Both the position numbers and the translations under genes were made by a program. Positions 41,426-64,000 of a stretch of DNA of 64,000 nucleotides are shown here, in pieces. The stretch is from an uncultured Chloroflexia bacterium (GTDB lineage: Bacteria; Chloroflexota; Limnocylindria; Limnocylindrales; CSP1-4), in contig CAVOWV010000017.1 in assembly GCA_963700245.1 (NCBI GenBank), positions 64,236 through 128,235 on the forward strand. Reading direction: 5' to 3'. Within the stretch, counting starts at the first letter, position 1, and each line of letters opens with the position of its first letter. Below the pieces are notes generated by a model that had not been told where the DNA came from, did not search any database, and saw only the letters and a program-made list of their open reading frames with translations.

Positions 41426-41575
41426 TACGCAGGGTTTCTTGCCCACAGGTGCACCGTTCTTGCGCCGGGCGCACGCCGAGGACGGTCCTGAGGCTTCGGA
41501 CACCCGATCGGGCGCCGTCACCATGCGTGCCACGCAAGCCGGCAGCACATCTGTCGGGATTCCTTGCGTACCACG

Positions 41576-41635
41576 CAGGCCCGCGCTCGGCAGGCCCGCG
41601 CTCGGCAGGTCCGCGCTCGGCAGGCCCGCGCTCGG
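41576..41635. repeat. Tandem repeat, 15-nt unit x4 (CAGG[C/T]CCGCGCTCGG)
   Basis: Read directly. A related core, CAGGTCC[G/A]CG..CAGGCTCAC, recurs at 42600-42620 and 42650-42670. Confidence 0.85.
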
Positions 41636-41745
41636 CAGGTCAGGTATCGGCGCGGGTAGGTCAGCTCGGCGCGGGTAAGGTCAGCTCGGCGCGGGTAGGT
41701 CAGCTCGGCGCGGGTAAGGTCAGCTCTTGGCGCCGGTAGGTCAGA
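41636..41745. repeat. Tandem repeat, 19-20-nt unit, about 5 copies (GGTCAGCTCGGCGCGGGTA[A]); the last unit merges into the stop-codon region of the adjacent gene
   Basis: Read directly. The final unit, GGTCAGACCTCGGCGGCGG, contains the TCA (stop) of the minus-strand gene ending at 41741. Confidence 0.8.
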
Positions 41746-50029: not shown

Positions 50030-50150
50030 GCGTCAGTCGGCACAACTTCCATAGGTACGTGGCGACAACAGCCCGACTCGGACGGCGCCCCACGAGCGGG
50101 TGCCGGGCGGCTGGTATCCTTGCAACCCGCGACTCCCCCGTCGCCACGCG

Positions 50151-50226
50151 CGCCTGTAGCTCAGTGGATAGAGCGTCGGCCTCCGGAGCCGAAGGTCGCA
50201 GGTTCGAATCCTGTCGGGCGCGCCAA
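50151..50226 (+). tRNA. tRNA-Arg (anticodon CCG)
   Basis: GCGCCTGTAGCTCAGTGGATAGAGCGTCGGCCTCCGGAGCCGAAGGTCGCAGGTTCGAATCCTGTCGGGCGCGCCA folds as a 76-nt cloverleaf. The anticodon loop is CTCCGGA and CCA is encoded. Confidence 0.93.
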
Positions 50227-50396
50227 ACCACCCCGCTCTTGCCGCGGACTCCCGTGCTCCGTGTTGCGTGCCGCCCTGTTGGGTGGCCGTCTGGTGCAGG
50301 CACCATGCCCCGTCAGCGCCGCGTGCGCAAGCGCGTTGTGTGCAGTGCCTGCGGGCCGCGGGTGGTCCCTGGATCCGCAGCATGGTCGTCGTGGCG

Positions 50397-50642
50397 TCAG
50401 TCCCCGTCGTCGTCACCGGGCGGCAGCGAACTCACCCCAGATGATGCGTCGGCATCCATCGCATCGCGGATCACGGCCGCGATCGCCGCGATAAGCGGGC
50501 TGCGGCCGACCCGGTCGATCCGCGTGTCGTCCGGCGGCTGGGCGATGGGGATCCGGACAGTTCGGAGCCCCTCGCGGTGCACCGGGCATTCCCTGGGTTC
50601 GCGATCTCCCGGGTCGCGTGCCGGACAGCTGTCGTTGTCCAT
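50397..50642 (-). CDS. Small conserved hypothetical protein (81 aa), paralog of 52326..52583
   Basis: The C-terminal ...VRIPIAQ...SPLIAAIAAVIRDAMD matches ...VRMPTAQ...SPLIAALAAVVRDAME in the second cassette. Over 16 aligned codons there are 5 synonymous third-position changes and 3 conservative replacements. Confidence 0.5.
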   Translation of the reverse strand: MDNDSCPARDPGDREPRECPVHREGLRTVRIPIAQPPDDTRIDRVGRSPLIAAIAAVIRDAMDADASSGVSSLPPGDDDGD

Positions 50643-50803
50643 CGCTGCTCCACGTGCTGGCCGAGGGACAGCGATGGGGTGCGGCGCAAGCTCGGCCACG
50701 ACCACGATCGCTTCCGCAAGACCGGCCATGCCCCGGCCAGGGCGACGAGTGGATGCTCGCGCTCGTGCATCGACCGCGGAGGCGCCCAGGCACGGACGCG
50801 GAC

Positions 50804-51964
50804 TCAGAAGGCCGGATCCCGCGTCAGGATCGAGAGGTACGCGTCGTAGGCGTACAGGCGGCTGCGCTGGCGACCGGTGATCTCGCTGACGATGCCGAGC
50901 CCGGCGAGGGCCTCGATGCCGCGCGTCGCCGTCGGCACCGACACGCCGAGCCGCGAGGCCGCATCGCCCACGGACGCGATGGGCCGCTCGCACAGGACCG
51001 AGAACACCCGGGACGCGGCGCCTGCCGACCGCGCCAGGCCCGCGACCCGCCCCCGGTCGGCCCGCATCAGCTCCAGGAGCCGGTTCGCCGTCGCGACCGC
51101 ACCGCCGGCCGTCTGCTCGACGCCCTCGAGGAAGAAGTCGACCCACGCCTCCCAGTCGCCGTCGGTCCGGACCTGCCCGAGGAGCCGGTAGTACTCGTCC
51201 CGGTGCTCGCGGAGATACAGGCTCAGGTAGAGCAGCGGCTGCCGCAGGATGCCGGCGTGCGCGAGCAGGAGCGGGATCAGGAGCCGCCCGACGCGGCCGT
51301 TGCCGTCGAGGAACGGGTGGATCGTCTCGAACTGGACGTGGACGAGCGCCGCGCGGACGAGCTCGGGCACGCCCGGGTCGGGGGCGTGCAGGAACAGCTC
51401 GAGCGCGCCCATGCAGGTTCCGACGTCGGCCGGCTGCGGCGGCACGAACGCGGCATTGCCCGGGCGCGTCCCGCCGATCCAGTTCTGCGAGCGCCGGAAC
51501 TCGCCGGGCTCCTTGCGCGAGCCGCGGCCGCTGGCGAGGAGCAGGCCGTGCATCTCGCGGATCAGCCGGTTGGACAGCGGGAAGCCCTCGTGCAGCCGGG
51601 CCAGCCCGTGCTCCAGGGCAGCAACGTAGTTCGACACCTCCACGACGTCGTCGAGGGGCACGCCGGGGGCCACGTCGAGCTCGTACATGAGGAGGTCGGA
51701 GAGCGACGACTGGGTGCCCTCGATCTGCGACGAGAGGACGGCCTCGCGGCGGACGTAGCTGTAGAGGAAGAGCATCGTGTCGGGCAGCAGCGTGGAGACG
51801 GCGTCGAGCCGCCCCAGGGCGAGGGTCGCGCGCTCGAGGAGGCGCTGGCGGTCGCCCGTCAACGCGATCGGTGGGGCGGGCGGCAGGTCGAACGGCCGGA
51901 ACGCCCGGACCTCCTCGCCGCTCTCGCGCGATGACGTGTAGGTGCCGGTGAGCCCCCGGATCAT
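50804..51964 (-). CDS. Fic/DOC family protein (AMPylase-type) with a C-terminal winged HTH
   Basis: Contains the catalytic HPFLDGNGRVGR, the N-terminal inhibitory-type motif SSQIEG and a C-terminal ...RLGVSVPTATRGIEALAGLGIV. 386 aa, intact. Confidence 0.9.
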   Translation of the reverse strand: MIRGLTGTYTSSRESGEEVRAFRPFDLPPAPPIALTGDRQRLLERATLALGRLDAVSTLLPDTMLFLYSYVRREAVLSSQIEGTQSSLSDLLMYELDVAPGVPLDDVVEVSNYVAALEHGLARLHEGFPLSNRLIREMHGLLLASGRGSRKEPGEFRRSQNWIGGTRPGNAAFVPPQPADVGTCMGALELFLHAPDPGVPELVRAALVHVQFETIHPFLDGNGRVGRLLIPLLLAHAGILRQPLLYLSLYLREHRDEYYRLLGQVRTDGDWEAWVDFFLEGVEQTAGGAVATANRLLELMRADRGRVAGLARSAGAASRVFSVLCERPIASVGDAASRLGVSVPTATRGIEALAGLGIVSEITGRQRSRLYAYDAYLSILTRDPAF

Positions 51965-52092
51965 TGTGTCGCTGTCCTCAGGATCGTTAGCTGTCGCCCG
52001 TTTTGCTAACGATTGTAGCCGCTATCGTTAGTAACGATCCCGCCCCTGCGCTCGCCGACCTGTTGCCGACACCGGCCACTCGACCGGCTCGT

Positions 52093-52169
52093 TCACCACG
52101 GCCGGGGCGCGATCGGGACCCTCACGATAATGGTGGCGTCTGCAGGTTCGAATCCTGTCGGGCGCGCCA
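52093..52169 (+). repeat. Attachment-site-like repeat: about 50-nt element arm + 28-nt copy of the tRNA-Arg 3' end
   Basis: TCACCACGGCCGGGGCGCGATCGGGACCCTCACGATAATGGTGGCGTCT + GCAGGTTCGAATCCTGTCGGGCGCGCCA. It is not a complete tRNA. Confidence 0.8.
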
Positions 52170-52325
52170 AATCGCCCCGCATGCCGCACCTCTCGCGGCC
52201 GGGGTGGCCGAACAGTCCGATCTGCCGGACCCGATGCCCCAGATGGTGACCGCCGCACCCACCTGGATCAAGCGAGTTGTGTGCACTCGTGCGTCACCCG
52301 CACGAGTCCTGAAGACTCGCCAGGG

Positions 52326-52583
52326 CTAGAAGCCGTCCTTCTCCATCGCGTCGCGGACCACCGCCGCGAGGGCGGCGATGAGCGGGCTAGGCCCTGCGCT
52401 CGACGCCGACCGGCCCGCGACCTGCGCGGTCGGCATGCGAACCCGGCGCATCGCCGGTCCGTCCGTTCCTTCCGATCCATCGAGCGCCGGCTGCCCATCG
52501 GGCTCCACCAGCAGGCTCGCGTCCTCGCGCTCGGCGTCACGTCGTGCTCGTTCCAGCTTCTCGCTCCCTGTCTCGAAGGTCAC
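52326..52583 (-). CDS. Small conserved hypothetical protein (85 aa), paralog of 50397..50642
   Basis: See 50397..50642. It sits at about the same distance (157 vs 170 nt) from the preceding tRNA-end repeat. Confidence 0.5.
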   Translation of the reverse strand: MTFETGSEKLERARRDAEREDASLLVEPDGQPALDGSEGTDGPAMRRVRMPTAQVAGRSASSAGPSPLIAALAAVVRDAMEKDGF

Positions 52584-52749
52584 GCGTCACACTCGTGCAA
52601 TTCGTGCACCCTCGAGGTGACCCCAGTAGCGCAACGATGCAATCGCGCGAGTAGAACCCCCTGCACGCACTGCAGTGCGATCCCTTGTCTATTCTGCAAT
52701 CAGGCCCCTTAGGATTGACGCTCCTGCAGGAGAGCGCGACAATCGCCGC

Positions 52750-54015
52750 GTGACGACCGAGAACACTCGCCTAGCTGACTACCGGCCACGCGTCATGGAC
52801 GGCCAGCTCCGGGAGGCGCTCGGAGCGGCCGGGGCCGTGGTCATCGAGGGACCTCGGGCCTGCGGCAAGACGGAGACGGCGCGCCAGGCGGCGGCCAGCG
52901 AGATCCGGATGGACACGCCCGACGCCCGCCAGGCGTTCGCGGTCGACCCCGGTTTCGTGCTCGCGGGGGACCCGCCACGCCTCATCGATGAGTGGCAGGA
53001 GGTGCCGGATCTCTGGAACCTGGTGCGCCACGAGGTTGACGACCGGAGGGCGCCGGGGCAGTTCGTGCTCACCGGCTCGTCGGTGCCCAGGGACGACGCG
53101 CGGCGGCACTCGGGTGCAGGCAGGTTCATCCGTCTCCGGATGCGCACGATGTCGCTGATGGAGAGCGGCCACTCGGCGGGGACTGTCTCGCTGGCACGCG
53201 TGCTCTCGGGTGAGCGGGTGACCGCTCCGGATCCCGGGCTCCGGGTGGGTGACCTCGCGGAGCGGATCGTGATCGGCGGCTGGCCGGGCAACCTGGGCCT
53301 GACGCCGGCCCAGGCGTCCCTCCTCAACGAGGGGTACCTCGAGGAGGTCTGCCGGGTTGACGTGCCACGCGTCGATGGCGTGCGACGGGATCCGAGCGGC
53401 GTTCGCGCGCTCGTGACCTCGCTGGCACGCAACACTGCATGCCCGGCGAGCGCAGCGAGCCTCGCGGCTGACGCCGGTGCCGACCGGGCCATGAAGGTGG
53501 AGACCGCCCGCGCCTATCTCGGGGCGCTCGACCGCCTGCTGCTGACCGATGACGTCCCGGCCTGGAGCCCCAGCCTGCGAAGCCGGACCCGGTTGCGCGC
53601 ATCGCCGGTCCGACACCTGGCCGATCCGTCACTGGCGGCAGCGGCCCTCGGTGCCGGCCCGGATGCCTTGCTCGCAGACCTCAACCTGCTGGGCCTGCTG
53701 TTCGAGTCCCTGGTCGTGCGCGACCTGCGGATCCTGGCCGGGCCGCTCCGAGGGCGGGTCCACCACTACCGGGACGCCCTGGGGCTCGAGGCCGACGCCG
53801 TGATCGAGCTGCCCGGAGGCGACTGGGCCGCCTTCGAGGTCAAGCTCGGGTCCCACTCCTCCGTCGTCGATCCCGCAGCGGCAGGGCTACTGCGGCTGCG
53901 CGACCGGATCGCCGGGCGCCCGCCGCTCGCGCTCGTTGTCGTCACGGGCACCGGGTACTCGTTCGCACGGCCCGACGGCGTGCTCCAGGTGGCGATCGGC
54001 GCACTGGCCGCCTGA
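52750..54015 (+). CDS. AAA-ATPase (AAA_14-like) + DUF4143-type protein with a C-terminal PD-(D/E)xK-like motif
   Basis: GTG at 52750. Walker A is GPRACGKT and Walker B is RLIDEWQ. The C-terminus is ...EADAVIELPGGDWAAFEVKLG. Confidence 0.75.
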   Translation: MTTENTRLADYRPRVMDGQLREALGAAGAVVIEGPRACGKTETARQAAASEIRMDTPDARQAFAVDPGFVLAGDPPRLIDEWQEVPDLWNLVRHEVDDRRAPGQFVLTGSSVPRDDARRHSGAGRFIRLRMRTMSLMESGHSAGTVSLARVLSGERVTAPDPGLRVGDLAERIVIGGWPGNLGLTPAQASLLNEGYLEEVCRVDVPRVDGVRRDPSGVRALVTSLARNTACPASAASLAADAGADRAMKVETARAYLGALDRLLLTDDVPAWSPSLRSRTRLRASPVRHLADPSLAAAALGAGPDALLADLNLLGLLFESLVVRDLRILAGPLRGRVHHYRDALGLEADAVIELPGGDWAAFEVKLGSHSSVVDPAAAGLLRLRDRIAGRPPLALVVVTGTGYSFARPDGVLQVAIGALAA

Positions 54016-54042
54016 CCACAGGATCCGCGACAACGCCGGCAG

Positions 54043-54119
54043 TCACCACGGGCGCGGCGCGATCGGGACCCTGACGAAAATGGTGGCGTCTGCACGTCCA
54101 AGTCCTGTCGGGCGCGCCA
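54043..54119 (+). repeat. Attachment-site-like repeat, degenerate (arm + tRNA-Arg 3' end with 4 substitutions in the T-arm)
   Basis: TCACCACGGGCGCGGCGCGATCGGGACCCTGACGAAAATGGTGGCGTCT + GCACGTCCAAGTCCTGTCGGGCGCGCCA. Confidence 0.75.
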
Positions 54120-54173
54120 TTTCAACCTTGTCTGGCAGCGCCAGCGCCAGCGCCGATGAGGTTCCGCGAGCCG

Positions 54174-54590
54174 TCAGCGATCAGCCAGCGTCTCGAGGAA
54201 CTCGGCGGGTGTCATGGCCGGAATGACCGCCCGCAGGTCGAGCAGGTGGGCATCGCCGGTGACGAGTGCGTCTGCCCCGGCGTCACGCGCGAGGTCGATG
54301 AGGTACTCGTCGTCGGGATCGGCGCTGAGCGCTTCGGGTGATGGCACCGGATCGGCACGGACGACGGCTTCGCTCCGGATGAGCTCGACGTAGGCGTCGG
54401 CTTCCGCTTCCGACACGTAGCGCCGGAACTTGTCGCGCCCCAGGACCTCGCGCAGCTCGGCAAGGAGGAGCGGCGACACGATGAGTTCGAAGGCACCCGA
54501 GCGCAGCTCGAGCAGGAGCCGGGCGCTCCCGCCGCCCGGGCTGATCAGCGCCGCGACGAGGACGTTGGTGTCAAGAACCGCGCGCGGCAC
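54174..54590 (-). CDS. PIN-domain toxin (VapC-like)
   Basis: VLDTNVLVAALISP...LIVSPLLLAELREVL...DDEYLIDLA...ALVTGDAHLL. The GTG start overlaps the antitoxin 3' end by 20 nt. Confidence 0.8.
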   Translation of the reverse strand: MPRAVLDTNVLVAALISPGGGSARLLLELRSGAFELIVSPLLLAELREVLGRDKFRRYVSEAEADAYVELIRSEAVVRADPVPSPEALSADPDDEYLIDLARDAGADALVTGDAHLLDLRAVIPAMTPAEFLETLADR

Positions 54591-54822
54591 GCCGTTGCGC
54601 ACGCACCGCGTGCGTCTCCTCCACCGCGAGCCGCATCGCCTCGTCCTCGCCCAGGTCGCTGCGTGCCCAAACGCTGGCGACCACCTCGAAGCCGAGATAG
54701 GCGCGCAGAGCCGCCTCGACGACCTCCGAGTCGCGCTTGTCGGTGCGGGCCGCGCGGACACGGGCTGCGCGCAGGACGTCCTCGTCCACGTAGAGGGTGA
54801 CCTTGCGCTTGGTGCCAGCCAT
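54571..54822 (-). CDS. Ribbon-helix-helix (CopG-like) antitoxin
   Basis: MAGTKRKVTLYVDEDVLRAARVRAARTDKRDSEVVEAALRAYL; 83 aa, directly upstream of the PIN gene. Confidence 0.75.
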   Translation of the reverse strand: MAGTKRKVTLYVDEDVLRAARVRAARTDKRDSEVVEAALRAYLGFEVVASVWARSDLGEDEAMRLAVEETHAVRAQRRAARGS

Positions 54823-55001
54823 GAGTGCAGCATAGCGCCTTACTGTCATGCCAGCAAGACCAATCCACCTGGAGCCGAAGGGCCAAGACTCGCGGTCAGT
54901 GAAGCTCCCGTCTGCTGTAGCACCAGGCGCCTGCCGGGCGACACGTGAGAAGGCCACCGGACGGCGATCCGGTGGCCTTCGTTCAGCGGCGACGGGGCCG
55001 G

Positions 55002-55979
55002 TCAGTGCCGGTGGTGTCCGCCATCGTCCAGCTTGACCCGGGTGCTGACGTAGATGTCGGCGGTCGCCCCGCGACCGAAGTAGAGGCGCGTGCCGTCCCC
55101 GGAGAGCGACGGACGAGACTCCGGCTCCGCGGTGTTCACAGCCGCGACCGGGACCGGGGTGGACCACAGACCGGTCGACCGGCTGAGGGTCGCGGTCCAG
55201 ATGTCCATGTTCCCGCCCCGGCTCGACGCAAACACGATCTGCGTGCCGTCGCGGCTGACATTCGGCATCTGGTCCACGGCGGCGCTGTTGAGCTCCGCCA
55301 CGACCTCCGGCGTGCCGAACGTGCCGTCGCGGCGCTGGCGGCTCCGGTAGATGTCGTGGTTCGTCCCGGTCCCGGTGCTCGAGAAGTACAGGTAGATCCC
55401 ACCCCGGGCCACAACGAGCGACGGCCCGAACTCGCCGCCCGGGAAGTTGGGCCCGGTTCCGTCGGAGACACAGCCGAGGCTCCGCGGCGCCGTCCACGTT
55501 CCGTCATACCGCTGCCGGGTCATGTAGATGTCGCCGACCGGCGGGGTCATCCCCGGCGTCGCGCCACAGGCGGCGCGATCAGAGACGAACAGCAGCTTGC
55601 CTCCGCCCAGCGGGGTCGGGCAGAACTCCTGGTCGGCGGTGTTGATCGCGGAGCCGAGGTTCGTCATCGGGCCCCAGGGGGACCGCTTGTCCGGGCGCTC
55701 GGCGACCCAGATGTCGTTCTTCCCGAATCCGCCCGCTCGCGTGGAGGCGATGTACAGCTGCCTGCCGTTCGGTGATTCGATCGGGCAGCCGTCGTGGGCG
55801 GCCGTGTTGACTTCGGCCACGGCCGTCGGCGTACCCCAGGCGGAGTACTCGGACGGCCCGTGGGCGGCGGCCGGGACGACGCCGGCGGCCAGGACGATGA
55901 GCGCGCCCACCATGGACGCCGCTGCCCGCAGTGCTCGCTTGTGCGGCCCGCCTGCCGGGGCCGGACGATGTCGAGTCAT
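55002..55979 (-). CDS. Secreted PD40/TolB-like beta-propeller repeat protein with a His-rich C-terminus
   Basis: Signal ...MVGALIVLAAGVVPAAAHG. Repeated P.LS.DG..LYF.S.R.GG...DI(W/Y) units. The C-terminus is DDGGHHRH. The start is ambiguous (55979 or 56009). Confidence 0.7.
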   Translation of the reverse strand: MTRHRPAPAGGPHKRALRAAASMVGALIVLAAGVVPAAAHGPSEYSAWGTPTAVAEVNTAAHDGCPIESPNGRQLYIASTRAGGFGKNDIWVAERPDKRSPWGPMTNLGSAINTADQEFCPTPLGGGKLLFVSDRAACGATPGMTPPVGDIYMTRQRYDGTWTAPRSLGCVSDGTGPNFPGGEFGPSLVVARGGIYLYFSSTGTGTNHDIYRSRQRRDGTFGTPEVVAELNSAAVDQMPNVSRDGTQIVFASSRGGNMDIWTATLSRSTGLWSTPVPVAAVNTAEPESRPSLSGDGTRLYFGRGATADIYVSTRVKLDDGGHHRH

Positions 55980-56131
55980 TCCCCTTCTCCTCTGCTGGTG
56001 GCGGGGCACGGCCCCCGCGAGTCAGGGAGGAGTGTGGGCGCAAGCGGGGTCCCACCACATCGGCTCAGTCCTTAGGTGGCGGCCCAGAGCGGCCTCATTT
56101 TTCGGGCAGGCGCTCAGCAGGTGGCAGGCGC

Positions 56132-56491
56132 TCAGCAGGTGTAGAGCGGGGTGCCGGTCGCGAGCTCGGCGACGAACTCGGCCGCGGAGATGATCCTCGC
56201 GCCCTCGATCAGGCGCTCGTCGGTGATGCCGCGCGGCTTCGTGCACGCGCCGCACGCCCAGATCTGGCCCCCGCCTTCGAGCAGGGACGCGATGACCTCC
56301 CGGAGCGGCGGCATGCCCGGGTGGTGGAGGTCGTCCGCGTAGCCTTTCGTCGCCAGCCACACGCCTTCGATCGTGAGCAGCACGATCGCCTCCTGGTCCG
56401 CCGAGGCGGCGACGTTCGCGACGATGAAGGGCAGCGTCGCCCGCTCTGGGTCATCGTGACCATGGGTGGCTTGCGACAGGAATCGCGGCAT
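56132..56491 (-). CDS. DsrE/DsrF-like sulfur-relay family protein
   Basis: 119 aa: ...ERATLPFIVANVAASADQEAIVLLTIEGV...IWACGAC... Confidence 0.65.
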   Translation of the reverse strand: MPRFLSQATHGHDDPERATLPFIVANVAASADQEAIVLLTIEGVWLATKGYADDLHHPGMPPLREVIASLLEGGGQIWACGACTKPRGITDERLIEGARIISAAEFVAELATGTPLYTC

Positions 56492-56509
56492 CTCGGCGGT
56501 CCTCCAGCT

Positions 56510-56761
56510 CTACTTGCGACGAAGGTAGTAGCGCGTCCGTCCCGGCCCGTCCTCGGCGATGGCCACGATGGGATTGCCCGTCAGCCTCGACCACGAGGCC
56601 AGGCCGCTTCGCGCCGTCGGGTCGTCGGAGATGACCTCCAGGACTTGGCCCGTGCTCAGCTGGCGCATCCGGGACGCGATGATCGGGGTCAACGTCGAAC
56701 AAGCCTGACCGACAAGGTCCATGCAGACGTCCGGTTCCGGGGTACTCGATGAATCCAGCAT
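56510..56761 (-). CDS. TusA/SirA-like sulfurtransferase with a variant active-site motif
   Basis: It aligns to the TusA pattern LD..G..CP.P......L..G..L.V..DDP.. as MDLVGQACSTLTPIIASRMRQLSTGQVLEVISDDPTA. C-S-T-L-T-P stands in place of CPxP. Confidence 0.65.
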   Translation of the reverse strand: MLDSSSTPEPDVCMDLVGQACSTLTPIIASRMRQLSTGQVLEVISDDPTARSGLASWSRLTGNPIVAIAEDGPGRTRYYLRRK

Positions 56762-56912
56762 GGCTACTACGCCCTCCCAGGTTGCGCGGAGCGTAGGCCA
56801 CGGCGGCGATCGACCGCAATGGGGCGCTCCTTAGAAATCGCCAGGGGCGGTGCTTAGGCGGCGCCTTCCTCGTGGGGGTGACCCTCTCGACAAGGGCGAG
56901 GATAATCGCGCG

Positions 56913-59900
56913 ATGGCGTCCCAAATCGCGAGCCCCGTGTTCGTCGGCCGCGGCGAGGAGCTGCAACGGCTCCAGGCCGTGCTGGAAGGTGCCGGGTCCG
57001 GGATTGTCGGCACGGTCATCGTCGGGGGCGAGGCCGGCGTCGGTAAGACCCGGCTGCTGGCGGAGCTGCGAGCGGGCGCTGAGTCCGCCGGACTTCGCTT
57101 CCTCGTGGGTGCGTGTGTTGATCTCGGAGACGGTGCGCGCCCGTATGACCCACTCGTCGCCGCCCTCCGTCCGTGGCTGAAGGGCCTGTCTGCCGAGGAG
57201 TTCAGCCGCATCGTCGGGCCCGCACGATCCGCCGTCCAGCAGCTGATCCCCGACCTCGAAACCGGCAGCGACGGCAAGACGGCTGTCGACACCGACATGT
57301 CCTCCACCCAGTCCACCCTCTATCTCCAGGTGCTCGGGCTCATCGAGCGCGTCGCCACGGACGCGGTCACCGTCATCGTGCTGGAGGACCTCCACTGGTC
57401 GGACCGGTCGACTCGCGACATGCTGCGGTTCCTGGTGCGGAACCTCACGCACGGTCGCGTGGTGCTGATCGGCACCTATCGAACTGACGAGCTGAACGAG
57501 CGCCATCCGTTCCTGACCTTGCTTGCCGAGCTGGGCCGCAGCGGTCAGGTGGAGCGCATCGAGCTCGACCCGTTCACGCGGAGCGAGGTCCACGACCAGC
57601 TCGCGGGGATCCTCGGCAGCCCTCCGGACAGGGCTCTCGTCACCCGCCTCCACGAGCGCGGCGGTGGCAACGCGTTCTTCATCGAGGAGCTGCTCGTCGT
57701 CGAGCAACGCGGAGAGCAGCGTCTGGGGCTCACGCTCAGGGAGACGCTGCTGGCTCGAATCGGCGGCCTCTCGACCGCATCGCGACACCTCCTGCGCGTG
57801 GTCGCCGTGGCCGGTCAATCCGCGAGACACGACGTCCTGGCGATCGTCACCCGCATGGAGCCCGCCGAGATGGCCCTGGCCCTGCGAGAAGCGATCGACC
57901 GGTCCCTGCTGGTGGCCGGCGTCGACGAGGTCATGCAGTTCCGCCACGGTCTCGTGCGCGAAGCGGTCTACGACGAGCTCCTGCCCGGTGAGCGGCTGGC
58001 GCTCCATGCCGCGGTAGCCGCGGCGGTCGAATCGATTCACGCCGACTCCGACGTCGATGCTGCGGTGGCCTCCGAGCTGGCGCATCACTGGTACGAGGCA
58101 CGCGACGCGCGCCAGGCGCTGCCGGCCCTGTTGCGAGCCGGGTGGGCGGCGGAGCGGATGTTCGCCTTCGGCAATGCGTTCGCGCACTACCACCTCGCCT
58201 TGAGCCTGTGGCCCACCTCCACCGAGACCATCGGCGAGCTCACGCGCCATGAGCTGACGATGCGAACAGCCGAGGCAGCCGCCCTTGCCGGGGCGTACCG
58301 CCCTGCCATTGAGCTGGTGCAGACAGCACTTGCCGCCGAGTCCGCCGACGAGCGGGGCCCGATGCGCACGGGAACGCTCCTCGAACGGCTCGCCGTCTAT
58401 CACCTCGGGTCGGGCAATCCCGACGCCGCCCAGCCGGTGGCCCTTCGAGCGCTCGAGCAACTGCCAGCCGACCCGCCGTCGGTCGCGCGCGCCCAGGTCC
58501 TCGGCGTCCTCGCGCAGGCGCTTGGCCTGAAGTGCCAGTTCAGCGAGTCGAACCGCATCGCCCAGGAGGCGCTGACAACCGCCCGGGCGGTCGGCTCGGC
58601 CGCCGCGGAGATTCGCGCCCTGCGCTGCATCGGGCGCAACGCCGCAGCGGTTGGTGAAGCCGGCTCAGGTGTCCGCACCCTGCGTGAGGCGCTGCGCCTG
58701 GCGCAGACCGTGGGCGATGTCACCGGGGCGGCCGAGATCTCCATCGAGCTCGCGCTGGCACTCCACTGGGCGGGGGACCTGGACGAGGCCTGTCACGCGG
58801 CCGAAGAAGCGATCGCCGAGAGCGGCCGGTGGGGAGTCGAGGGATACGGGAGCGCGCTGCGGGCGATCAGGGGTGTATCGGCTTTCCTCCTCGGGCGGTG
58901 GCCCGAGGCGGACGAGTGGATCTCGAGCGCCCTCGAGCGAGATCCTGTCGGCTCGCACGGCGTCCTGGCGCACGGCGCGCAGGCACTTCTCGACCTGGGA
59001 CGCGGCGAGTTGGACTCGGCCGCCGAACACCTCGAGATCGTGCTGTTGATGTGCAGGGCATTCACGGCAACCGCCTACGGATGGACCGACCTGTACTCGA
59101 GCATTGCCTTGCTTTCGATCGCGAGGGGACGGCCGTCCGAAGCCATCGACTCCGTGAGGGAGAGCCTGGAGCGCTCCGCCGAGCCGGAGCGCGACGTCCA
59201 CATGCGCGTGTGCCATCGCCTGGCCATCCGAGCTGCGGCAGACCTCGCCGAGGTGGCTCGTCCACTGGGCGATGCGGCTGGTCTGGACCAGGCGCTCGCG
59301 ATCGGACGCGAGTTCGACCAACGGCTCGATCATCATGCCCAGCTTGTCCGCGCGCTTCCTGGCGGGGGCGACCCGCACCTGGCCCTCGACACGGCACTCG
59401 CCAAGGCCGAGCTGAGCCGGCTCGAGAATCGCCCAAGTGCGGCCGCGTGGGCTGTCGCGGCGGCCGCTGCCGATGGGCTCCAGCATCCCCACGAGGCTGC
59501 CTACAGCAGAATTCCGCCAAGCCGAGGCCATCCTGCTCGCACGCGGGTCTCGAATGGCTGCGCAGTCCGCGGCGCAGGAGGCGCACCGGATCGCATCCGA
59601 CCTGGGAGCCGTCCCAGTCCAGCGGGAGATCGAACGGCTGGCCCTGCGGTCGCGACTCGACCTCGCGACCCAGCCGGCGGCGTCCGAACGAGCCTCGAGC
59701 GTTGCGCCTGTCGGCCGTGCTATCCCATTCCGGCTGACTCGGCGCGAACAGGACGTCCTCGAGCGCCTCACGATGGGGCGCACGAACCGGGAGATCGCCA
59801 CCGACCTGTTCATCAGCGAGAAGACGGCCAGCGTGCACGTCTCGAACATCAAGTCGAAACTGGGAGCGAACGGCCGCGCCGAGATCGCCGCGATCGCGGT

Positions 59901-59949
59901 GCGCCTTGGCCTCGTCCCCGAGACCACGGGTGGATACGAGCTGAAGTGA
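56913..59949 (+). CDS. Large ATP-binding LuxR-family regulator (LAL/MalT-like: P-loop NTPase + TPR-like region + LuxR HTH), one frame shift as assembled
   Basis: N-terminus FVGRGEELQRL...GGEAGVGKTRLL. The C-terminus, in ORF 59437..59949, is LTRREQDVLERLTMGRTNREIATDLFISEKTASVHVSNIKSKLG. The shift is near 59500. Confidence 0.8.
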
Positions 59950-60019
59950 CCGGTGGCCAGCGGCTAACGGCGCCAGTGGGTCGACCCGTACCCATCCGTG
60001 ACTGAACTCGGGGGAGAGC

Positions 60020-60577
60020 GTGACGAAGTACCTCATCCTGCTGCGCGGGATCAATGTCGGCGGCAGGAACAAGGTGCCGATGGCGCCGCTGCGCGAGCTC
60101 CTCGAAGAGCTCGGCTACTCGAACGTCTCAACGTACATCGCGAGCGGCAACGTCATCCTGCAGTCCCGCCGCGCACCGGACGTGATCAAGCGGCAGATCG
60201 AAACCGCCTTGCCTAAGCGGTTTCGCCTCGACAGCGAGCTGATCGCGGTGCGGGTGCTGACGCACGCAGAGCTTCGGGCCGTCGTCGACCACAGGCCCCA
60301 GGGCTTTGGCGAGCGACCTGGGACATACCACAGCGACGCGATCTTCCTGATCGGGATCGACGCGGCGACGGTGATGGGGGTGTTCGACCCGCACCCGGAG
60401 GTCGATCGGGTGTGGCCGGGGGACGGCGTGATCTACTCGCAGCGCCTCAGCGCGCAACGCATGCGGAGTCGGCTCAGCAAGGCCATCACGACTCCGCTCT
60501 ACAAGTCGATGACGATCCGGAGCTGGTCGACGACGCTCGCACTCCTCGAACGCATGGACGAACGAGAGGACCCGTGA
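60020..60577 (+). CDS. DUF1697 domain protein
   Basis: MTKYLILLRGINVGGRNKVPMAPLRELLEELGYSNVSTYIASGNVI; 185 aa. Confidence 0.8.
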   Translation: MTKYLILLRGINVGGRNKVPMAPLRELLEELGYSNVSTYIASGNVILQSRRAPDVIKRQIETALPKRFRLDSELIAVRVLTHAELRAVVDHRPQGFGERPGTYHSDAIFLIGIDAATVMGVFDPHPEVDRVWPGDGVIYSQRLSAQRMRSRLSKAITTPLYKSMTIRSWSTTLALLERMDEREDP

Positions 60578-60804
60578 GCCAGCCCATCGTGGACGTCATC
60601 ACGTCCCTCGACCACAGGTCGGTCTGCGAGAGCGCGCTCAAGCCGTAGCTGGTCGCGGTGCCTGCGTCAGTCCGGGAACGCCTCCGGGCCTTGTTCCGCG
60701 AGCTCGGCAGCATGACCATTTCCGCGCGCCGCCCGGGGATCATTGAACACCCCTGGTGAGGAACCACTCTGTAGTCTCGGACGGCGCACCCGATGAGCGC
60801 CAAG

Positions 60805-60926
60805 CGTCCAAGTCCTCCCGATCGATGGACCGGCGGGACCTGATGCGCTCGCCCCGCGCCCGACGCCTGTCGGGCGCGGATCGGGGGCGTCGACAGGCTG
60901 CCACCGACCGAGAAGGTGGCGTCTGC
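60805..60926. repeat. Scrambled remnant related to the 52.1/54.1 kb arm + tRNA-end repeats
   Basis: CGTCCAAGTCCT (60805-60816) is identical to 54095-54106. CCTGTCGGGCGCG+GATCGGG (60866-60885) and AAGGTGGCGTCTGC (60913-60926) match parts of the repeat, in permuted order. Confidence 0.4.
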
Positions 60927-60991
60927 GAGACATGGCAGGACCCCGCCGACGAGGGTGGCGGACCTTGACGCGTGGCGTTAGCCTCGTCGCC

Positions 60992-61969
60992 ATGCGTCCC
61001 GATCGCGTCACCATCGCGGCGTTCATCGGCTTCGTCCTGATTGCCGGGGCGGTCTCGGTGGCAATCCGCCTCGGCGCCTTCGAGCTGCCGTCGTTCTGGG
61101 CAGCGACCCTGCGCTACGCGATGGCGGTGCCCATCTTCGCTGCCTTGGCGATCGCCCTGCGCATCCCGTTCCCGCGCGGCGCGAACCTCGCCGGCGCCCT
61201 GCTGTTCAGTCTCACCTTTGTCGTGTCGACCGCGCTCCTCTACGTGGGCGTCAGCAGCTCCTCGGCGTCGATGGGCGCGATCGCGTTCGCGGTGACGCCA
61301 CTGGTGACGCTCGCGCTCGCCGCGGTGATCGGCCTCGAGCGGTTCACCGTCCGCGGGGTCGCGGGGGCCCTGGTCGCGGCCGCGGGAATGGTCGTCGTCG
61401 TGGGCGACCAGCTCGGCGCTGCGGTCCCGCTGCCCGCGCTGCTGGCACTGGGCGGCGCGATGTTCTTCTCGGCGGTTACCTCCGTGGTGATCAAGCGCCT
61501 GCCACCAGGCCACCCCTTCTCGGCAAACGCCGTGGGTGGCCTGTTCGTCCTGCCGATCCTGCTCGCACTCTCGTTCCTCGCCAACGAGACCTGGGCTCTG
61601 CCGAGCCGGCTCGAGACCTGGGCGGCCCTCGGGTTTCTCGTCGTGTTCGGGACCGTGCTCCTGTTCCCGCTGGCCCTGTTCATCATCGGGCGCTGGACGG
61701 CGTCGGGCTACTCCTACACGGGCCTCTTCAAGCCATTGGCGGGAGTTGCACTGGCAGCGGTCATCCTGAGCGAGCCGATCCGCGTCACCTTCGTGCTCGG
61801 CGGGGCGCTCGTCCTCGTCGGCGTCTGGGTGGGCGCGTTCACCACGCCATCGGTCCCCTCGCCGGCGTCAGACGTGATCGAACCCGAGCCACATCCAGCC
61901 CTCGTGCCGGTGATGGCCGACGACAAGGCGCGGGATCGGGCAGGCCCGGAACGCACTTCTCAGGTCTAG
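60992..61969 (+). CDS. EamA/DMT-family transporter
   Basis: About 10 TM helices in two EamA-like halves. Start chosen at MRPDRV. Confidence 0.75.
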   Translation: MRPDRVTIAAFIGFVLIAGAVSVAIRLGAFELPSFWAATLRYAMAVPIFAALAIALRIPFPRGANLAGALLFSLTFVVSTALLYVGVSSSSASMGAIAFAVTPLVTLALAAVIGLERFTVRGVAGALVAAAGMVVVVGDQLGAAVPLPALLALGGAMFFSAVTSVVIKRLPPGHPFSANAVGGLFVLPILLALSFLANETWALPSRLETWAALGFLVVFGTVLLFPLALFIIGRWTASGYSYTGLFKPLAGVALAAVILSEPIRVTFVLGGALVLVGVWVGAFTTPSVPSPASDVIEPEPHPALVPVMADDKARDRAGPERTSQV

Positions 61970-61978
61970 GCCCGCGCC

Positions 61979-64000
61979 CTACACGTCGGAGGTCGCGATC
62001 CAGCCTGCGATCTGGACGCGGGAATCGAACCCGAGCTTGTTCAGGATGTTGCCAACGTGGGTCGTGACCGTCCGCTCCGAGATGAACAGGCGCGCGCCGA
62101 TCTCCTTGTTGCCGAGACCCTCGGCGATCAGCCTCGCCACCTCCACCTCTCGCTTCGAGAGCGGTCCGGTATCGATGTGCTTGTCGGCGTCGCCAGCCTC
62201 GTCACGGTCGCCCAGCGCCAATCGCAGCGCTGTCTCCCGATGCAACCTCGTGCCCGCGGCGTACTCGGTCTCGAAGCTCGCTGCGCCCGTTGCCGTGAGT
62301 GCGGCCGTCCTCACGCGCGCCAGCTCCCGCCCGAACGGACCCGTCGGGCTGGCGCCAGCCGCAGAACCGAGGGCGTCCGCGGCCCCGAGCAACCGCGCCC
62401 CCAGGCGCGGCTGGCCGGATCTCGCCGCCTGCCCACCCAACTGGCACAGAAACGATGACTGTCCGAGCCGGTTGTCCGTCTGCCTCGCGACCCGCAGGCC
62501 CTCGATGAACCGGACCTTCGAGCCAGCCAGATCCCCGGCCGCCGTCGCGACGAGGCCGAGGTTCATGAGCATCCTCTCGAGGTAGTAGAGGTCGCCGACC
62601 TCACGGCTCATGCGAGCGCCTTCCGACGACGCGGTCTCGGCGGTGGCGAGGTCTCCCTCGGCTAGTGCGTGGATGGCCCGTGCCTGTAGCAACCCCATCG
62701 AAGCCGGGTAGTGGTCAAGGCCCGGCGTGATGATCGCGGCTTCGTCGAGGAGTCGCTGGGCCGTTGCCCGATCTCCTGCCATGTACGCCGCCGTCGAGGC
62801 GAGGGACAGCGATTCTGACAACTGCGGGAGTTGCCCCGCGATGCGGGCGGTGCTGATCGCCCGAGCAAGCCAGGGCCTTGCCGCCTCAGGATCGCCCTTC
62901 AGGACGCTGAGCCATCCCCGGAAGTAGTACGCCCGCGCCGGAACCTCAGGACATCCCTCGGCGGCCGCGAGGAGGTCATCGAACCAGCGGATGCTCTCAG
63001 TGGTCCCACGCGTGACCCAGTAGTAGCCAACAGACGTGGCGAGCTCGAGACCGCGCCGCCAGTCCGAGGCCGCCAGGCACTTCTGGAGTGCCGATCGGAC
63101 GTTGTCGATCTCGAGGTCAAGCCATTCGAGCCACGCGAGTGTTCGATTGGGCCCCGGCGCCCGAGTGCGCAGGGCGACCTGGATGTCGCGAAGCAGGACC
63201 GCCCGGCGATCGCGTGTCTGCGCTCGGTAGTACTCGACGAAGATATCGTCGAGCCACTCCGCCTCGCCCGCCTCCTGCAGCTTGAGGCCCGCGTACTCGC
63301 GCATCGTCTCGTGCAAGCGGTAGCAGGCGACGCCAAACGCGTCCTCTCGCATGACCAACGACTTGTCGACCAGCGCGGCCAGCAAGTCCAACGCAGGATC
63401 ACCGGACCCCCGGCCGTGCGCAACGACGGACTCGACGTCGTCCACCGTGAACCGGCCGGCGAAGACGCACAGGCGGCGCAACAGCTCTTGCTCCTGCGCC
63501 GCCAGCAGGTCATGGCTCCAGTCGATGGTCGTCCGCAGCGTCTGCTGCCGGGGCAGCGCGGCGCGGCCTCCTCCCGTCAGGAGGGCGAACCGGTCCGTCA
63601 GGCGATCGAGGATCTGCTCGACGGTGAGCACGCGCATCCTCACGGCGGCAAGCTCGATCGCGAGCGGGAGACCATCGAGCCGTCGACACAGCGCGACGAC
63701 GGCTGATCGGTTTGACGCCGTCAGCTCGAACGACCCAGACGTCGACGCGGCTCGCTCCGTGAACAACATGACGGCTTCGTTCTGGAGGAGCCTCGACATC
63801 GGTTGCTCGTCGCCCGCGGCCGGAAGCTCCAGCGGCGGCACGGGGACGACGCGCTCGCCCGGAAGCTGCAGGGGCTCGCGGCTCGTCGCGATCACGCGGA
63901 CGTTGGGCGCGGCACGGAGGACGTCCGCCACCAGGGCGGCAGACGCGTCGAGCAGGTGCTCACAGTTGTCGAGGACGAGCAGCAGCTCGCGGTCCCGCAG
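61979..64000 (-). CDS. Large LuxR-family regulator (NB-ARC/P-loop-like + TPR + LuxR HTH); 5' end beyond the window
   Basis: The C-terminus is LSKREVEVARLIAEGLGNKEIGARLFISERTVTTHVGNILNKLG. The frame stays open to base 64000 (...RELLLVLDNCEHLLDA...). Confidence 0.8.
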   Translation of the reverse strand: MRDRELLLVLDNCEHLLDASAALVADVLRAAPNVRVIATSREPLQLPGERVVPVPPLELPAAGDEQPMSRLLQNEAVMLFTERAASTSGSFELTASNRSAVVALCRRLDGLPLAIELAAVRMRVLTVEQILDRLTDRFALLTGGGRAALPRQQTLRTTIDWSHDLLAAQEQELLRRLCVFAGRFTVDDVESVVAHGRGSGDPALDLLAALVDKSLVMREDAFGVACYRLHETMREYAGLKLQEAGEAEWLDDIFVEYYRAQTRDRRAVLLRDIQVALRTRAPGPNRTLAWLEWLDLEIDNVRSALQKCLAASDWRRGLELATSVGYYWVTRGTTESIRWFDDLLAAAEGCPEVPARAYYFRGWLSVLKGDPEAARPWLARAISTARIAGQLPQLSESLSLASTAAYMAGDRATAQRLLDEAAIITPGLDHYPASMGLLQARAIHALAEGDLATAETASSEGARMSREVGDLYYLERMLMNLGLVATAAGDLAGSKVRFIEGLRVARQTDNRLGQSSFLCQLGGQAARSGQPRLGARLLGAADALGSAAGASPTGPFGRELARVRTAALTATGAASFETEYAAGTRLHRETALRLALGDRDEAGDADKHIDTGPLSKREVEVARLIAEGLGNKEIGARLFISERTVTTHVGNILNKLGFDSRVQIAGWIATSDV

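Follow-up and report, generated by a model that had tools for sequence, protein, structure and literature searches.

A putative array of small defence cassettes behind a tRNA-Arg gene, probably accreted through large serine recombinases of Limnocylindria

Introduction

In the window analysed here, i.e. the whole stretch of 64,000 nucleotides from an uncultured bacterium of the Limnocylindria (Chloroflexota), small cassettes lie in a row behind a tRNA-Arg(CCG) gene and are closed by copies of the 3' end of that gene, an arrangement that raises the question of how they came to be stacked there and which recombinase was responsible. A previous inspection of the letters and open reading frames, hereafter the sequence-only reading, saw two such cassettes, found no recombinase and regarded them as either decayed remnants or elements mobilised in trans.

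Results

The tRNA-Arg locus and its repeats

The attachment region comprises the following features:

50150..50225, + strand: tRNA-Arg(CCG), intact (ARAGORN; Rfam RF00005, 72 bits)
50210..50225, + strand: core copy 1, the invariant 16-mer CCTGTCGGGCGCGCCA (site compilation)
52154..52169, + strand: core copy 2, an exact copy
54104..54119, + strand: core copy 3

An exact repeat of the last 28 nt of the tRNA gene lies at 52142-52169, and a further repeat, altered at four positions, at 54092-54119; the start-to-start distances are 1944 and 1950 nt. Neither the 28-mer nor the arm that precedes copies 2 and 3 is expected to find a match in shuffles of the window (expectation 0), and together with ARAGORN, Rfam and the exact string matches this substantiates the repeats that had been proposed. 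The 30-nt string GCAGGTTCGAATCCTGTCGGGCGCGCCAAA is found at 50198-50227 and 52142-52171; the first of these had been placed one base too high (50199-50228). Copies 2 and 3 belong to a common block of 77 nt (52093-52169 and 54043-54119, 90% identity) in which a shared arm of 49 nt directly precedes each of them. All four differences of the third copy fall within its T-arm part (GCACGTCCAAGT) and, contrary to what substitutions in a tRNA copy would imply, they are not simple decay, since these 12 nt are part of the element-side half-site, a sequence that varies with the arm family. Only the 16-mer is common to the great majority of 104 compiled sites, when at most one mismatch is allowed in each. 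The syntenic tRNA-Arg gene, with PPIase, His-biosynthesis and DUF885 genes as neighbours, is targeted in dozens of related genomes, and the gene at 50150..50225 appears to mark where the array starts on the left and to serve as its attachment site on the chromosome (attB).

Repeats carry a general risk of misassembly in metagenomes, and this is the one point that speaks for an assembly or chimera artefact. We give this explanation practically no credence, since these units and their junctions recur in independent assemblies and samples (ENA ERZ25039527 and ERZ27247845, JGI 3300032164 and 3300032143) and in many MAGs of other studies.

Three units with predicted defence or toxin-antitoxin cargo

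Apart from their arms, the units consist of:

50226..50396, no strand: left (tRNA-proximal) flank of unit 1 (alignment of units 1 and 2)
50397..50642, - strand: small ORF 1 of unit 1, 81 aa
50804..51964, - strand: cargo of unit 1, SoFic-type Fic protein of 386 aa with the Fic motif HPFLDGNGRVGR (Pfam Fic_N and Fic)
52170..52325, no strand: left flank of unit 2 (unit alignment)
52326..52583, - strand: small ORF 2 of unit 2, 85 aa, paralogue of small ORF 1
52750..54015, + strand: cargo of unit 2, AAA_14/DUF4143 ATPase of 421 aa (Pfam AAA_14 and DUF4143); start codon uncertain, alternative GTG at 52675
54174-54602, - strand: cargo of unit 3, PIN_3 toxin (Pfam PIN_3, E = 1e-22)
54571-54822, - strand: cargo of unit 3, VapB-like antitoxin (weak VapB_antitoxin and DUF6364 matches, below cut-offs)
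54823..54860, no strand: end of the shared array (comparison with locus L005)

The window thus appears to hold three small cassettes with predicted anti-phage or toxin-antitoxin genes behind tRNA-Arg. The array had been described as two units ending at 54119; what follows is a third unit, composed of a recombinase remnant and the PIN/VapB pair, and not chromosomal flank. Its gene calls agree with those in L005, a 99%-identical locus from which the window diverges abruptly at 54860/54861, a point at which no core is found.

The conserved minus-strand ORF of about 80 aa and both cargo assignments of the sequence-only reading were upheld, the former by BLASTP (53% identity over 40 residues, E = 7e-10) and the latter by Pfam. 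The Fic protein matches PADLOC SoFic over its full length (E = 2.3e-117) and an identical copy is present on 8 other contigs; the ATPase matches PDC-S01, which PADLOC lists as a candidate defence family (E = 8.7e-67), and its DNA is 91% identical in L007. The left flanks of units 1 and 2 share a 25-nt motif (CAAGCGNGTTGTGTGCA..., 50326-50350 in unit 1), and in that of unit 2 an inverted repeat with 22-nt arms (52272-52320) lies just downstream of small ORF 2. A remnant of a recombinase gene body was sought in the left flank of unit 1 and none was detectable.

Small ORF 1 has no Pfam, PHROG or PADLOC match and only 5 clusters of homologues were found; its differences from L002 are distributed over the codon positions (9/11/27) as expected for coding sequence. 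These homologues abut the start of a recombinase gene in L088, L089 and L091, and small ORF 2 matches the ORF upstream of the recombinase gene of L089 (tblastn, E = 1.6e-5). In the main clade of the large serine recombinase (LSR) family described below, a conserved small ORF likewise abuts the LSR start, and a profile-profile comparison links it to the relatives of the window ORFs (E = 2.5e-4). Judging from these matches, the ORF of about 80 aa is a relative of the small gene found immediately before the LSR gene of intact elements, and small ORF 1 is a candidate accessory or directionality factor.

The arm as the end of a large serine recombinase gene

Three stretches of the minus strand read as recombinase sequence:

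52093..52153, - strand: arm A of unit 1, last recombinase codons ...FEPADATIIVRVPIAPRPW and stop (translation)
54043..54103, - strand: arm A of unit 2, ...LGRADATIFVRVPIAPRPW and stop (translation)
54120..54173, - strand: recombinase-gene remnant ...SSALALALPDKVEM, left end of the third unit, beyond core 3

On the minus strand, arm and core together read ...MARPTGFEPADATIIVRVPIAPRPW followed by a stop, and the reverse complement of TCACCACGG, CCGTGGTGA, encodes Pro-Trp-stop. In L006 an intact LSR ORF of 504 aa traverses flank, core and arm A, its stop being the first base triplet of the arm, and translation of the window arms gives this tail as well. Arm A of unit 1 (stop TCA at 52093-52095) matches recombinase residues 480-504 with 96% identity (tblastn, E = 5e-10), and the remnant beyond core 3, in frame with core and arm over about 41 codons in total after an in-frame stop, matches residues 454-504 with 67% identity (E = 1.7e-13). 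The same flank follows cores also in L001, L002, L006 and L007. The arm is therefore the last 15 or so codons, with the stop, of an LSR gene of about 500 aa that crosses its own attachment site.

The stretch of some 50 nt before copies 2 and 3 is thus an element-side arm, as the sequence-only reading had supposed. The reading was also right that the units contain no recombinase gene, as none is intact among the approximately 50 largest ORFs of the window or by tblastn with the recombinase family; what it missed is that the recombinase can be identified, as the arm itself is serine recombinase coding sequence. The LSR content of the window amounts to remnants of 25 and about 41 codons, and the latter falls into a series of pseudogenes that runs from the full gene through an internally deleted copy (L001) and 84 codons (L007) to the window.

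Intact elements in related genomes

Among 80 species-representative loci, 55 have a tRNA-Arg gene at the 3' end of the LSR gene, typically with an overlap of about 28 nt; 41 of these tRNA genes have the anticodon ccg, and the remainder tct, tcg or cct. In about 50 of 80 Limnocylindria genomes the intact LSR gene converges on a tRNA-Arg gene and ends in 21 residues encoded antisense to it. The family comprises 553 clusters, and its C-termini mostly read MARPTGFEPATFGSGGRRSI[HR], which matches the tRNA translated in antisense exactly. In contrast to these, copies that are free or lie inside an array have a conserved long tail (...IPIEGRDEWLAAA), a form also carried by viral contigs. The summed entropy of the tail by codon position is 5.5, 3.2 and 12.7, and the tail is under protein-level constraint. 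L018 (8.7 kb), L087 and L057 are complete elements with a second 16-mer as boundary, and the arm of this 16-mer supplies the remainder of the ORF, including the long tail.

Tyrosine integrases classically leave long direct repeats of a tRNA 3' end, and according to the Islander paper (PMC4383910) no other integrases were known to target tRNA genes. One could thus regard the units as ordinary tRNA islands of a tyrosine integrase encoded outside the window, with the serine recombinase gene as an unrelated neighbour. We find this very improbable. The LSR ORF itself spans the repeat and its stop codon sets the edge of the arm, the gene abuts tRNA-Arg in 55 of 80 genomes, and no tyrosine recombinase is found inside the three complete elements, which are bounded by repeats. 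In addition, the attP-type site is an imperfect palindrome of about 48 bp (23+2+23), as expected for serine integrases, centred on the CC that lies at 50210-50211 in the window, and PMC3218068 provides precedents for tRNA-targeting serine recombinases in Mycobacterium AICEs (tRNA-Leu) and phage phiRSM (tRNA-Ser). Sites composed of a type-C arm and an LSR-coding flank are symmetric about the CC at 15-19 of 24 positions, against 6-13 of 24 at tRNA sites. As the A-type arms of the window show weak dyad symmetry (10-14/24) and its right-hand flanks keep the outer GCAACCT motif at only 3-4 of 9 positions, the main-clade LSR may recognise the window sites poorly.

Spread of the SoFic unit

Nine other loci, in at least six array contexts, have the SoFic unit, its identity being 99.1-99.8% at eight of them and 97.6% in L001. 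Backbone identity is 90.7% in L004 and 88.8% in L039, so that the unit lies about 9 percentage points above the backbone; its boundaries fall exactly at the cores, and the neighbours on both sides differ between loci. The contrast between 97.6-99.8% and 89-91% identity clearly speaks for a recent spread as a discrete module, and the occupancy polymorphism at this tRNA that the sequence-only reading had suggested looking for does exist across related loci. The circular junctions it had also suggested were not found: two scans of assembled JGI metagenomes, a collection containing a single copy of the SoFic unit, gave no circular junction of this unit and no further copy of its left junction, the sole match being a contig already known.

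The same observations bear on a further explanation, in which the units are inert scars of full recombinase-bearing elements that decayed in place, and their contexts came to differ by homologous recombination at arms or cores after DNA uptake and by neighbour turnover, without site-specific mobilisation of LSR-less units. The graded pseudogene series, the weak symmetry of the window sites and the missing circular junction agree with it, and so do mosaic arms: an A1 arm is joined to an A2-type 12-mer in L009-L011, and in L004 the SoFic unit has an A2 arm. In copy 2 the 12 nt to the left of the CC match the tRNA T-arm exactly, and in L009-L011 this cassette has a different 12-mer; exchange at the CC alone does not account for this, which suggests that the arms have undergone gene conversion or homologous recombination with one another. 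Nevertheless, we hold inert scars to be unlikely. The boundaries of the SoFic unit are the same at nine other loci, its identity stands well above the backbone, and the repeats usable for homologous exchange measure only 16-77 nt. Moreover, L007 contains seven consecutive units of 1.6-2.2 kb, each with one defence or toxin-antitoxin system, and the same clean reduction would have had to occur many times.

Discussion

We consider it probable that the array arose by tandem accretion of CIME-like units at a tRNA-Arg attachment site, driven by the LSR family of Limnocylindria, an unusual role for a serine recombinase. In intact elements the small gene is followed by the LSR gene and this by tRNA-Arg, the latter two being convergent, and attP lies inside the last 30 or so codons of the LSR gene. 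Strand exchange would most likely take place at the CC that opens CCTGTCGGGCGCGCCA, at the boundary of T-loop and T-stem. Upon integration the last 14 nt of the tRNA would be newly supplied by the element, the old tRNA 3' end would end up at the element's distal end, past the P arm that encodes the LSR tail, and the native tail (...IPIEGRDEWLAAA) would be swapped for the 21 antisense residues. As each product would keep the same 14 nt right of the crossover, the tRNA would stay a usable target and later arrivals would stack between it and earlier units.

Several points weigh against this reading: the missing circular junction of the SoFic unit, the weak dyad symmetry of the window sites, the 12-mers that exchange at the CC alone does not account for, and the score of the Pfam Recombinase domain, which lies just below its cut-off. 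In addition, attP and attL are, to our knowledge, not a substrate pair of canonical LSRs, and reuse of an occupied tRNA therefore requires our assumption that the right half-site is defined essentially by the shared 14 nt.

As far as their anatomy tells, the window units are stripped-down relatives of LSR-inserted mobile elements, without the LSR gene: units 1 and 2 retain the P arm, a single predicted defence gene and the small gene from upstream of the LSR gene, and unit 3 retains about 41 LSR codons and the PIN/VapB pair. Such units would not move autonomously, and their past or present mobility would depend on the LSR of a neighbouring or incoming element, either by excision of a circle or, more simply, by joint excision with a neighbour that has an LSR, the two forming a composite (accretion and cis-mobilisation). 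Of the two origins offered by the sequence-only reading, decay is supported by the pseudogene series and modular movement by the recent spread of the SoFic unit, and neither is selected alone.

The closest known systems are the CIMEs and the tandem accretion at tRNA genes exemplified by ICESt1/CIME of Streptococcus thermophilus (reviewed in PMC5704250). Like CIMEs, the units have attL- and attR-type bounds, have lost integration genes, sit in a row at the 3' end of a single target gene and would presumably need a functional partner element in order to move. Unlike CIMEs, which depend on a tyrosine integrase, they involve an LSR, are very small (1.9 kb), carry one cargo gene each without conjugation remnants and, in units 1 and 2, still contain the small gene usually found beside the recombinase.

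An attP within the integrase gene, a tRNA target and a product changed or split on integration are also reported for Mx8 IntP and the 'suicidal' integrases of the SSV type (PMC4383910, PMC7253208). Those are tyrosine recombinases, whereas here only the last 26 or so residues are swapped, the replacement peptide is an antisense reading of the tRNA and the lost tail is conserved at the protein level. The Mycobacterium AICE integrases and the resolvase-like integrase of phiRSM share with the present family the insertion of an element into a tRNA gene by a serine recombinase, which the pertinent passages of PMC3218068 and PMC4471427 call rare. The present family differs from them in kind and phylum and in targeting tRNA-Arg isoacceptors, and those passages describe for them neither a recombinase ORF overlapping the site nor LSR-less arrays.

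With regard to cargo, the window and related arrays match models of defence islands and single-gene systems (SoFic, PDC-S01, AbiE, VapBC), an anti-phage role in this lineage being predicted from these models and PDC-S01 being a candidate family only. Finally, the row of small, similar-sized, mostly single-gene units parted by a recurring recombination site resembles integron cassette arrays, as do the newest unit, presumably beside the primary site, and the adaptive or defensive cargo, here a prediction. In contrast to integrons, the present arrays have no IntI tyrosine recombinase, folded single-stranded attC or common promoter, their cargo lies in both orientations with its own upstream regions, and the recombinase travels within some units instead of being fixed beside the array.

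Results

Array and cargo in the window

The last 28 nt of tRNA-Arg(CCG) and two flanking A's form a 30-nt string at 50198-50227 that recurs exactly at 52142-52171, and a third copy of the tRNA 3' end, with four changes in the T-arm, lies at 54092-54119; shuffled sequence gave zero comparable matches. The copies are spaced by 1944 and 1950 nt. A 49-nt arm stands ahead of both copies 2 and 3, and the 77-nt block of arm plus core is 90% identical between them. Each interval holds one cargo gene and one small minus-strand ORF, of 81 and 85 aa respectively, the two ORFs being 53% identical over 40 residues (E = 7e-10). The annotated features are:

50150-50225, + strand, tRNA-Arg(CCG)
50804-51964, Fic_N/Fic cargo gene
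52750-54015, AAA_14/DUF4143 cargo gene

The sequence-only reading had described this layout of repeats, small ORFs and cargo as two stacked cassettes, and comparison of repeats, ORFs and domains confirmed it, its coordinates being right except for one pair displaced by one base. The signature of a tRNA island, an intact tRNA with a displaced 3' fragment in direct orientation, is present in the window. A further core was looked for at the distal end of unit 3, which holds the PIN/VapB pair, and none was found. The window diverges abruptly from L005 (L numbers denote related loci from public assemblies), which is otherwise 99% identical, at 54860/54861 (7105 in L005), 38 nt upstream of the VapB start and without a core; past this break L005 enters a truncated Fic fragment and the window a PD40 beta-propeller gene. 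The right-hand chromosomal flank (54861-64000) gave no useful match when all related loci were searched for an empty or alternative site.

The Fic cargo matches the SoFic model of PADLOC (PDLC03963, E = 2.3e-117), with residues 18-382 aligned to positions 5-360 of the 361-position profile, and its Fic motif HxFx(D/E)GNGRxxR is intact (HPFLDGNGRVGR in translation); judged by this full-length match and the motif, it is a candidate defence protein. The ATPase of unit 2 belongs to the PADLOC candidate family PDC-S01 (E = 8.7e-67). Immediately 5' of the SoFic start codon (51975-52040) lie the palindromes GTTAGC...GCTAAC and CGTTAGTAACG, which are kept with the unit in other loci and look like an operator.

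The sequence-only reading had also reported that no recombinase gene is present in the units or elsewhere in the window, and this holds: none was found among about 50 of the largest ORFs, which encode housekeeping or unrelated products (ATP synthase, MreB, SHMT, ModABC, LuxR-type regulators and cadherin-like proteins), and a tblastn search with the large serine recombinase (LSR) described below returned the two remnants only. An integrase in every island, a feature of the Islander set, is accordingly lacking in the window and is found in L006, L018, L057 and L087. Elsewhere in the window, a perfect 17-nt tandem repeat (41359-41424, 3.9 copies) shares an intergenic stretch with arrays of 15, 19, 30 and 39 nt (41575-41753). 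Coding sequence for cadherin-like and Big_9 Ig domains extends over several ORFs at 11100-16800 with weak codon-position contrast, includes a 12-nt repeat (15893-16020, 10.8 copies), and may represent one large surface-protein gene, in decay or disrupted by frameshifts.

The arm is the 3' end of a serine recombinase gene

Searching public assemblies with the small ORF and the Fic protein gave eleven loci on ten contigs, in all of which the 16-mer CCTGTCGGGCGCGCCA, the invariant core of the tRNA 3' end, lies between small gene groups. In L006 a 504-aa Resolvase-domain protein directly adjoins the Fic unit, and the frame of this LSR crosses flank, 16-mer and arm, its stop being the first triplet of the arm and its C-terminus reading ...YAHGLALALPEKVAMARPTGFEPADATIIVRVPIAPRPW-stop. 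In fact, the opening bases of the arm, TCACCACGG, are the reverse complement of CCGTGGTGA (Pro-Trp-stop), and the minus strand of the window translates to ...ARPTGFEPADATIIVRVPIAPRPW-stop at copy 2 and to ...SSALALALPDKVEMARPTGLGRADATIFVRVPIAPRPW-stop at copy 3; antisense translation across the tRNA itself gives ...ARPTGFEPATFGSGGRRSIH-stop. Because of the L006 frame and these translations, the arm is the 3' end of the LSR gene. Beyond copy 3 LSR gene sequence continues, to about 41 codons in all, with the PIN/VapB pair directly next to it. A degenerate tRNA or structured RNA was also considered for the arm and rejected, since Rfam finds only the two true tRNAs, no cloverleaf is seen by eye and the arm is coding.

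The N-terminal catalytic domain of the LSR matches PF00239 (E = 1e-11; score 45.6 bits, cut-off 23.3), and in the motif ARWIRESTAGQ the residues R18, R21, S23 and Q27 are invariant across 20 diverse members; among solved structures it comes closest to the catalytic domain of TP901-1 integrase and to that of a conjugative-transposon recombinase. The Recombinase domain PF07508 scores 19.2 bits, below its cut-off of 21.1. C292, C294, H313 and C317 are invariant, a pattern compatible with a zinc site, and the LSR gave no match to a zinc-ribbon family.

Homologues fall into 553 clusters (E < 1e-10). The majority have the C-terminus MARPTGFEPATFGSGGRRSI(H/R), which is what tRNA-Arg(CCG) encodes in antisense; a smaller group finishes with ...ARPTGVGRALATYEIPIEGRDEWLAAARRLA or a tail related to it. 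When species-representative genomes were scanned, 80 loci emerged, nearly all in MAGs of Limnocylindria and other Chloroflexota. At 55 of these 80 the 3' end of the LSR gene meets a tRNA-Arg gene encoded on the other strand, with a typical overlap of about 28 nt, and in many the far side of the tRNA (PPIase, His-biosynthesis and DUF885 genes) shares synteny with the window. The anticodon is ccg at 41 of the LSR-associated tRNA-Arg genes and tct, tcg or cct in divergent clades, whose LSR tails match the antisense of their own isoacceptor; the target specificity of the LSR has therefore shifted among Arg tRNAs. The tct anticodon was seen in L043, L081, L083, L085 and L069, tcg in L047, L048, L074, L076, L079 and L090, and cct in L091.

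Several loci hold complete elements (L018, L087, L057 and L073 among them), in which the tRNA and the LSR gene are followed by 3-9 kb of genes and then by another 16-mer; the arm in front of this 16-mer would finish the LSR ORF with the long tail if the element were circular. The long-tail form is found on predicted phage contigs. Beyond the half-site the summed entropy of the tail codons is 5.5 at the first codon position, 3.2 at the second and 12.7 at the third, and because of this pattern the tail is regarded as a constrained peptide that integration removes. Among most of the larger predicted genes of three complete elements no tyrosine recombinase was present. A tyrosine-integrase origin of the units was rejected, given that the LSR ORF spans the repeat and that the genes screened in these three elements include no such enzyme.

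Attachment site

Sites formed by a type-C arm and an LSR-coding flank read AGGTTGC TAACGCGCGCCCAACA CC TGTCGGGCGCGCCATT GCAACCT (AGGTTGC-N16-CC-N16-GCAACCT), and 15-19 of 24 positions are symmetric about the CC, versus 6-13 of 24 at tRNA sites. A short attP (~50 bp) with imperfect dyad symmetry around 2 bp, a feature of serine integrases, is thus present. To the left of the CC the sequence differs by arm family (tRNA T-loop or arm types A, B and C), and to the right 14 nt are invariant before an element-dependent flank begins. Symmetry and variation together form the pattern expected of a serine integrase exchanging strands at the CC, and from them we infer that the crossover would be the CC at 50210-50211.

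The SoFic unit carries GCAGGTTCGAAT, identical to the tRNA T-arm, just left of the CC in the window (52142-52153), and GCACGTCCGACT in L009 (2422-2433), L010 (1868-1879) and L011 (215-226). These strings differ at three of 12 nt, with about 99.5% identity over the rest of the unit, which suggests gene conversion, possibly of an element-type half-site into a tRNA-type one. In three unrelated loci an IS-like terminal sequence, TGTC(A/T)TGAGTCGCGACAT, lies 1-3 nt past the CCA of the 16-mer (L001 at about 16877-16900, beside an rve transposase gene at 16037-16813; L050 at about 12800; L062 at about 6310), and a transposable element may use the same spot as the serine recombinase.

Small ORF

The small ORFs matched no family in Pfam, PHROGs or PADLOC and have only five homologue clusters. 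Compared with L002, the differences fall 9/11/27 by codon position, a coding-like distribution. Relatives lie directly upstream of the LSR gene in a divergent clade (L088, L089 and L091), and in the main clade a conserved small ORF particular to that clade (...DPLVAALARYVEALHRRYPDGP...) stands directly against the start of the LSR gene; the profile-profile link between the two is weak (E = 2.5e-4, probability 43%). Because relatives abut the LSR, units 1 and 2 carry the gene that normally accompanies it, placed and oriented as usual, without the LSR itself. From its position, our guess is that this is an accessory or directionality gene. In the 156-171 nt between small ORFs and cores no remnant of the LSR gene body was found beyond the tRNA-antisense tail, and therefore units 1 and 2 cannot be shown to have lost the LSR gene by simple deletion.

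Discussion

Eleven loci on ten contigs carry the SoFic unit, always spanning precisely the interval between two cores, and the encoded 386-aa protein is identical on eight of the contigs. Its left neighbour is the tRNA in the window, L004 and L005, a type-B arm in L006 and L007, an A2 arm in L008 and a truncated tRNA in L009 and L010; its right neighbours likewise vary by locus. Identity of the unit is 99.1-99.8% at eight other loci, with 97.6% in L001, and the chromosomal backbone reaches only 90.7% in L004 and 88.8% in the MAG holding L039 and L001. The latter MAG has an intact LSR at the tRNA and the SoFic unit about 28 kb further along the same array, and in L006 the unit adjoins an intact LSR element. 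L007 holds at least seven consecutive units of 1.6-2.2 kb, each with cargo of its own: SoFic; Phd/Doc-like genes; AbiEi/AbiEii; an AbiEii-like protein together with an HTH protein; a PIN gene; and, in two units, a DUF4143 ATPase. Our conclusion is that LSR elements gave rise to the units, which have moved as modules in recent times, most likely through the LSR of a neighbouring or incoming element or by travel within composites, homologous exchange between arrays being a less probable route.

A further step, which we put forward tentatively and consider rather doubtful, is to read the arrays as a functioning system of defence-gene cassettes and not a graveyard. Each recombinase-less unit of about 2 kb would combine a P arm with a single defence or toxin-antitoxin system and, in some cases, a small accessory gene; resident phages or elements would supply the LSR in trans, so that units would be routinely excised, exchanged and re-inserted at tRNA-Arg; and the swap of the LSR C-terminal tail at integration would act as a built-in switch between free and integrated states. 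On the question of whether the units are mobile at all, several observations point towards decay or plain homologous recombination: LSR pseudogenes of decreasing length exist, arms are mosaic between loci and the A-type sites of the window have weak symmetry. Scans of JGI metagenome contigs for circle junctions were likewise empty or uninformative, in a collection that barely contains the SoFic unit: the circular junction, which would read ...CGATAATGGTGGCGTCTGCA[12 nt]CCTGTCGGGCGCGCCAAACCACCCCGCTCTTGCC preceded by CGGCTCGTTCACCACGG, gave 0 matches, and the left junction of any copy gave 1, in an already-known contig. At the tRNA-proximal end of a unit in L001 (12238-12574) lies an internally deleted LSR pseudogene, residues 249-302 being joined to 448-502, which represents a stage on the way to losing the recombinase gene.

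Tyrosine integrases are usually credited with integration into tRNA genes. The present LSR family, which probably uses tRNA-Arg and restores the tRNA end, comprises hundreds of protein clusters and is found in most Limnocylindria genomes sampled. Since the attachment site lies within the LSR coding sequence, the enzyme has one C-terminus in the free element and another in the integrated one, and this tail exchange would give a class of enzymes widely employed in genome engineering a directionality switch that is natural and open to testing. Software for finding islands that needs a tyrosine integrase, or an integrase per unit, will miss such arrays, which are a route for the circulation of single defence genes in an uncultured phylum.

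In the literature searched we found no description of this LSR family or of the arrays, which does not prove their absence from it. An attP inside the integrase gene is known for the tyrosine integrases of Mx8 and of SSV type (PMC4383910, PMC7253208). The authors of Islander describe tyrosine integrases as the sole known enzymes targeting tRNA genes, and for that reason left serine recombinases out of their search (PMC4383910). Serine recombinases with such targets are called rare, the precedents being Mycobacterium AICEs and phage phiRSM (PMC3218068, PMC4471427). Tandem accretion and CIMEs provide a precedent for the logic of a tRNA array (PMC5704250); like a CIME, the units of the window have attL- and attR-type flanks and lack recombination or transfer genes, with the caveat that their small ORF may be a recombination accessory gene. 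Mobilisation in cis once a functional element has joined by accretion, the other mark of a CIME, may apply as well, the evidence being indirect: the place of the SoFic unit beside an intact LSR element in L006 and in one array with an LSR in L039/L001. If the cassette-system reading were true, the arrays would be a serine-recombinase analogue of the integron in an uncultured soil and freshwater phylum. An integron has the tyrosine recombinase IntI, an attI site and attC sites between promoterless cassettes, an organization that differs from that of the arrays, in which the ORFs screened include no tyrosine recombinase, the sites are double-stranded palindromes derived from the tRNA end and the cargo lies in both orientations.
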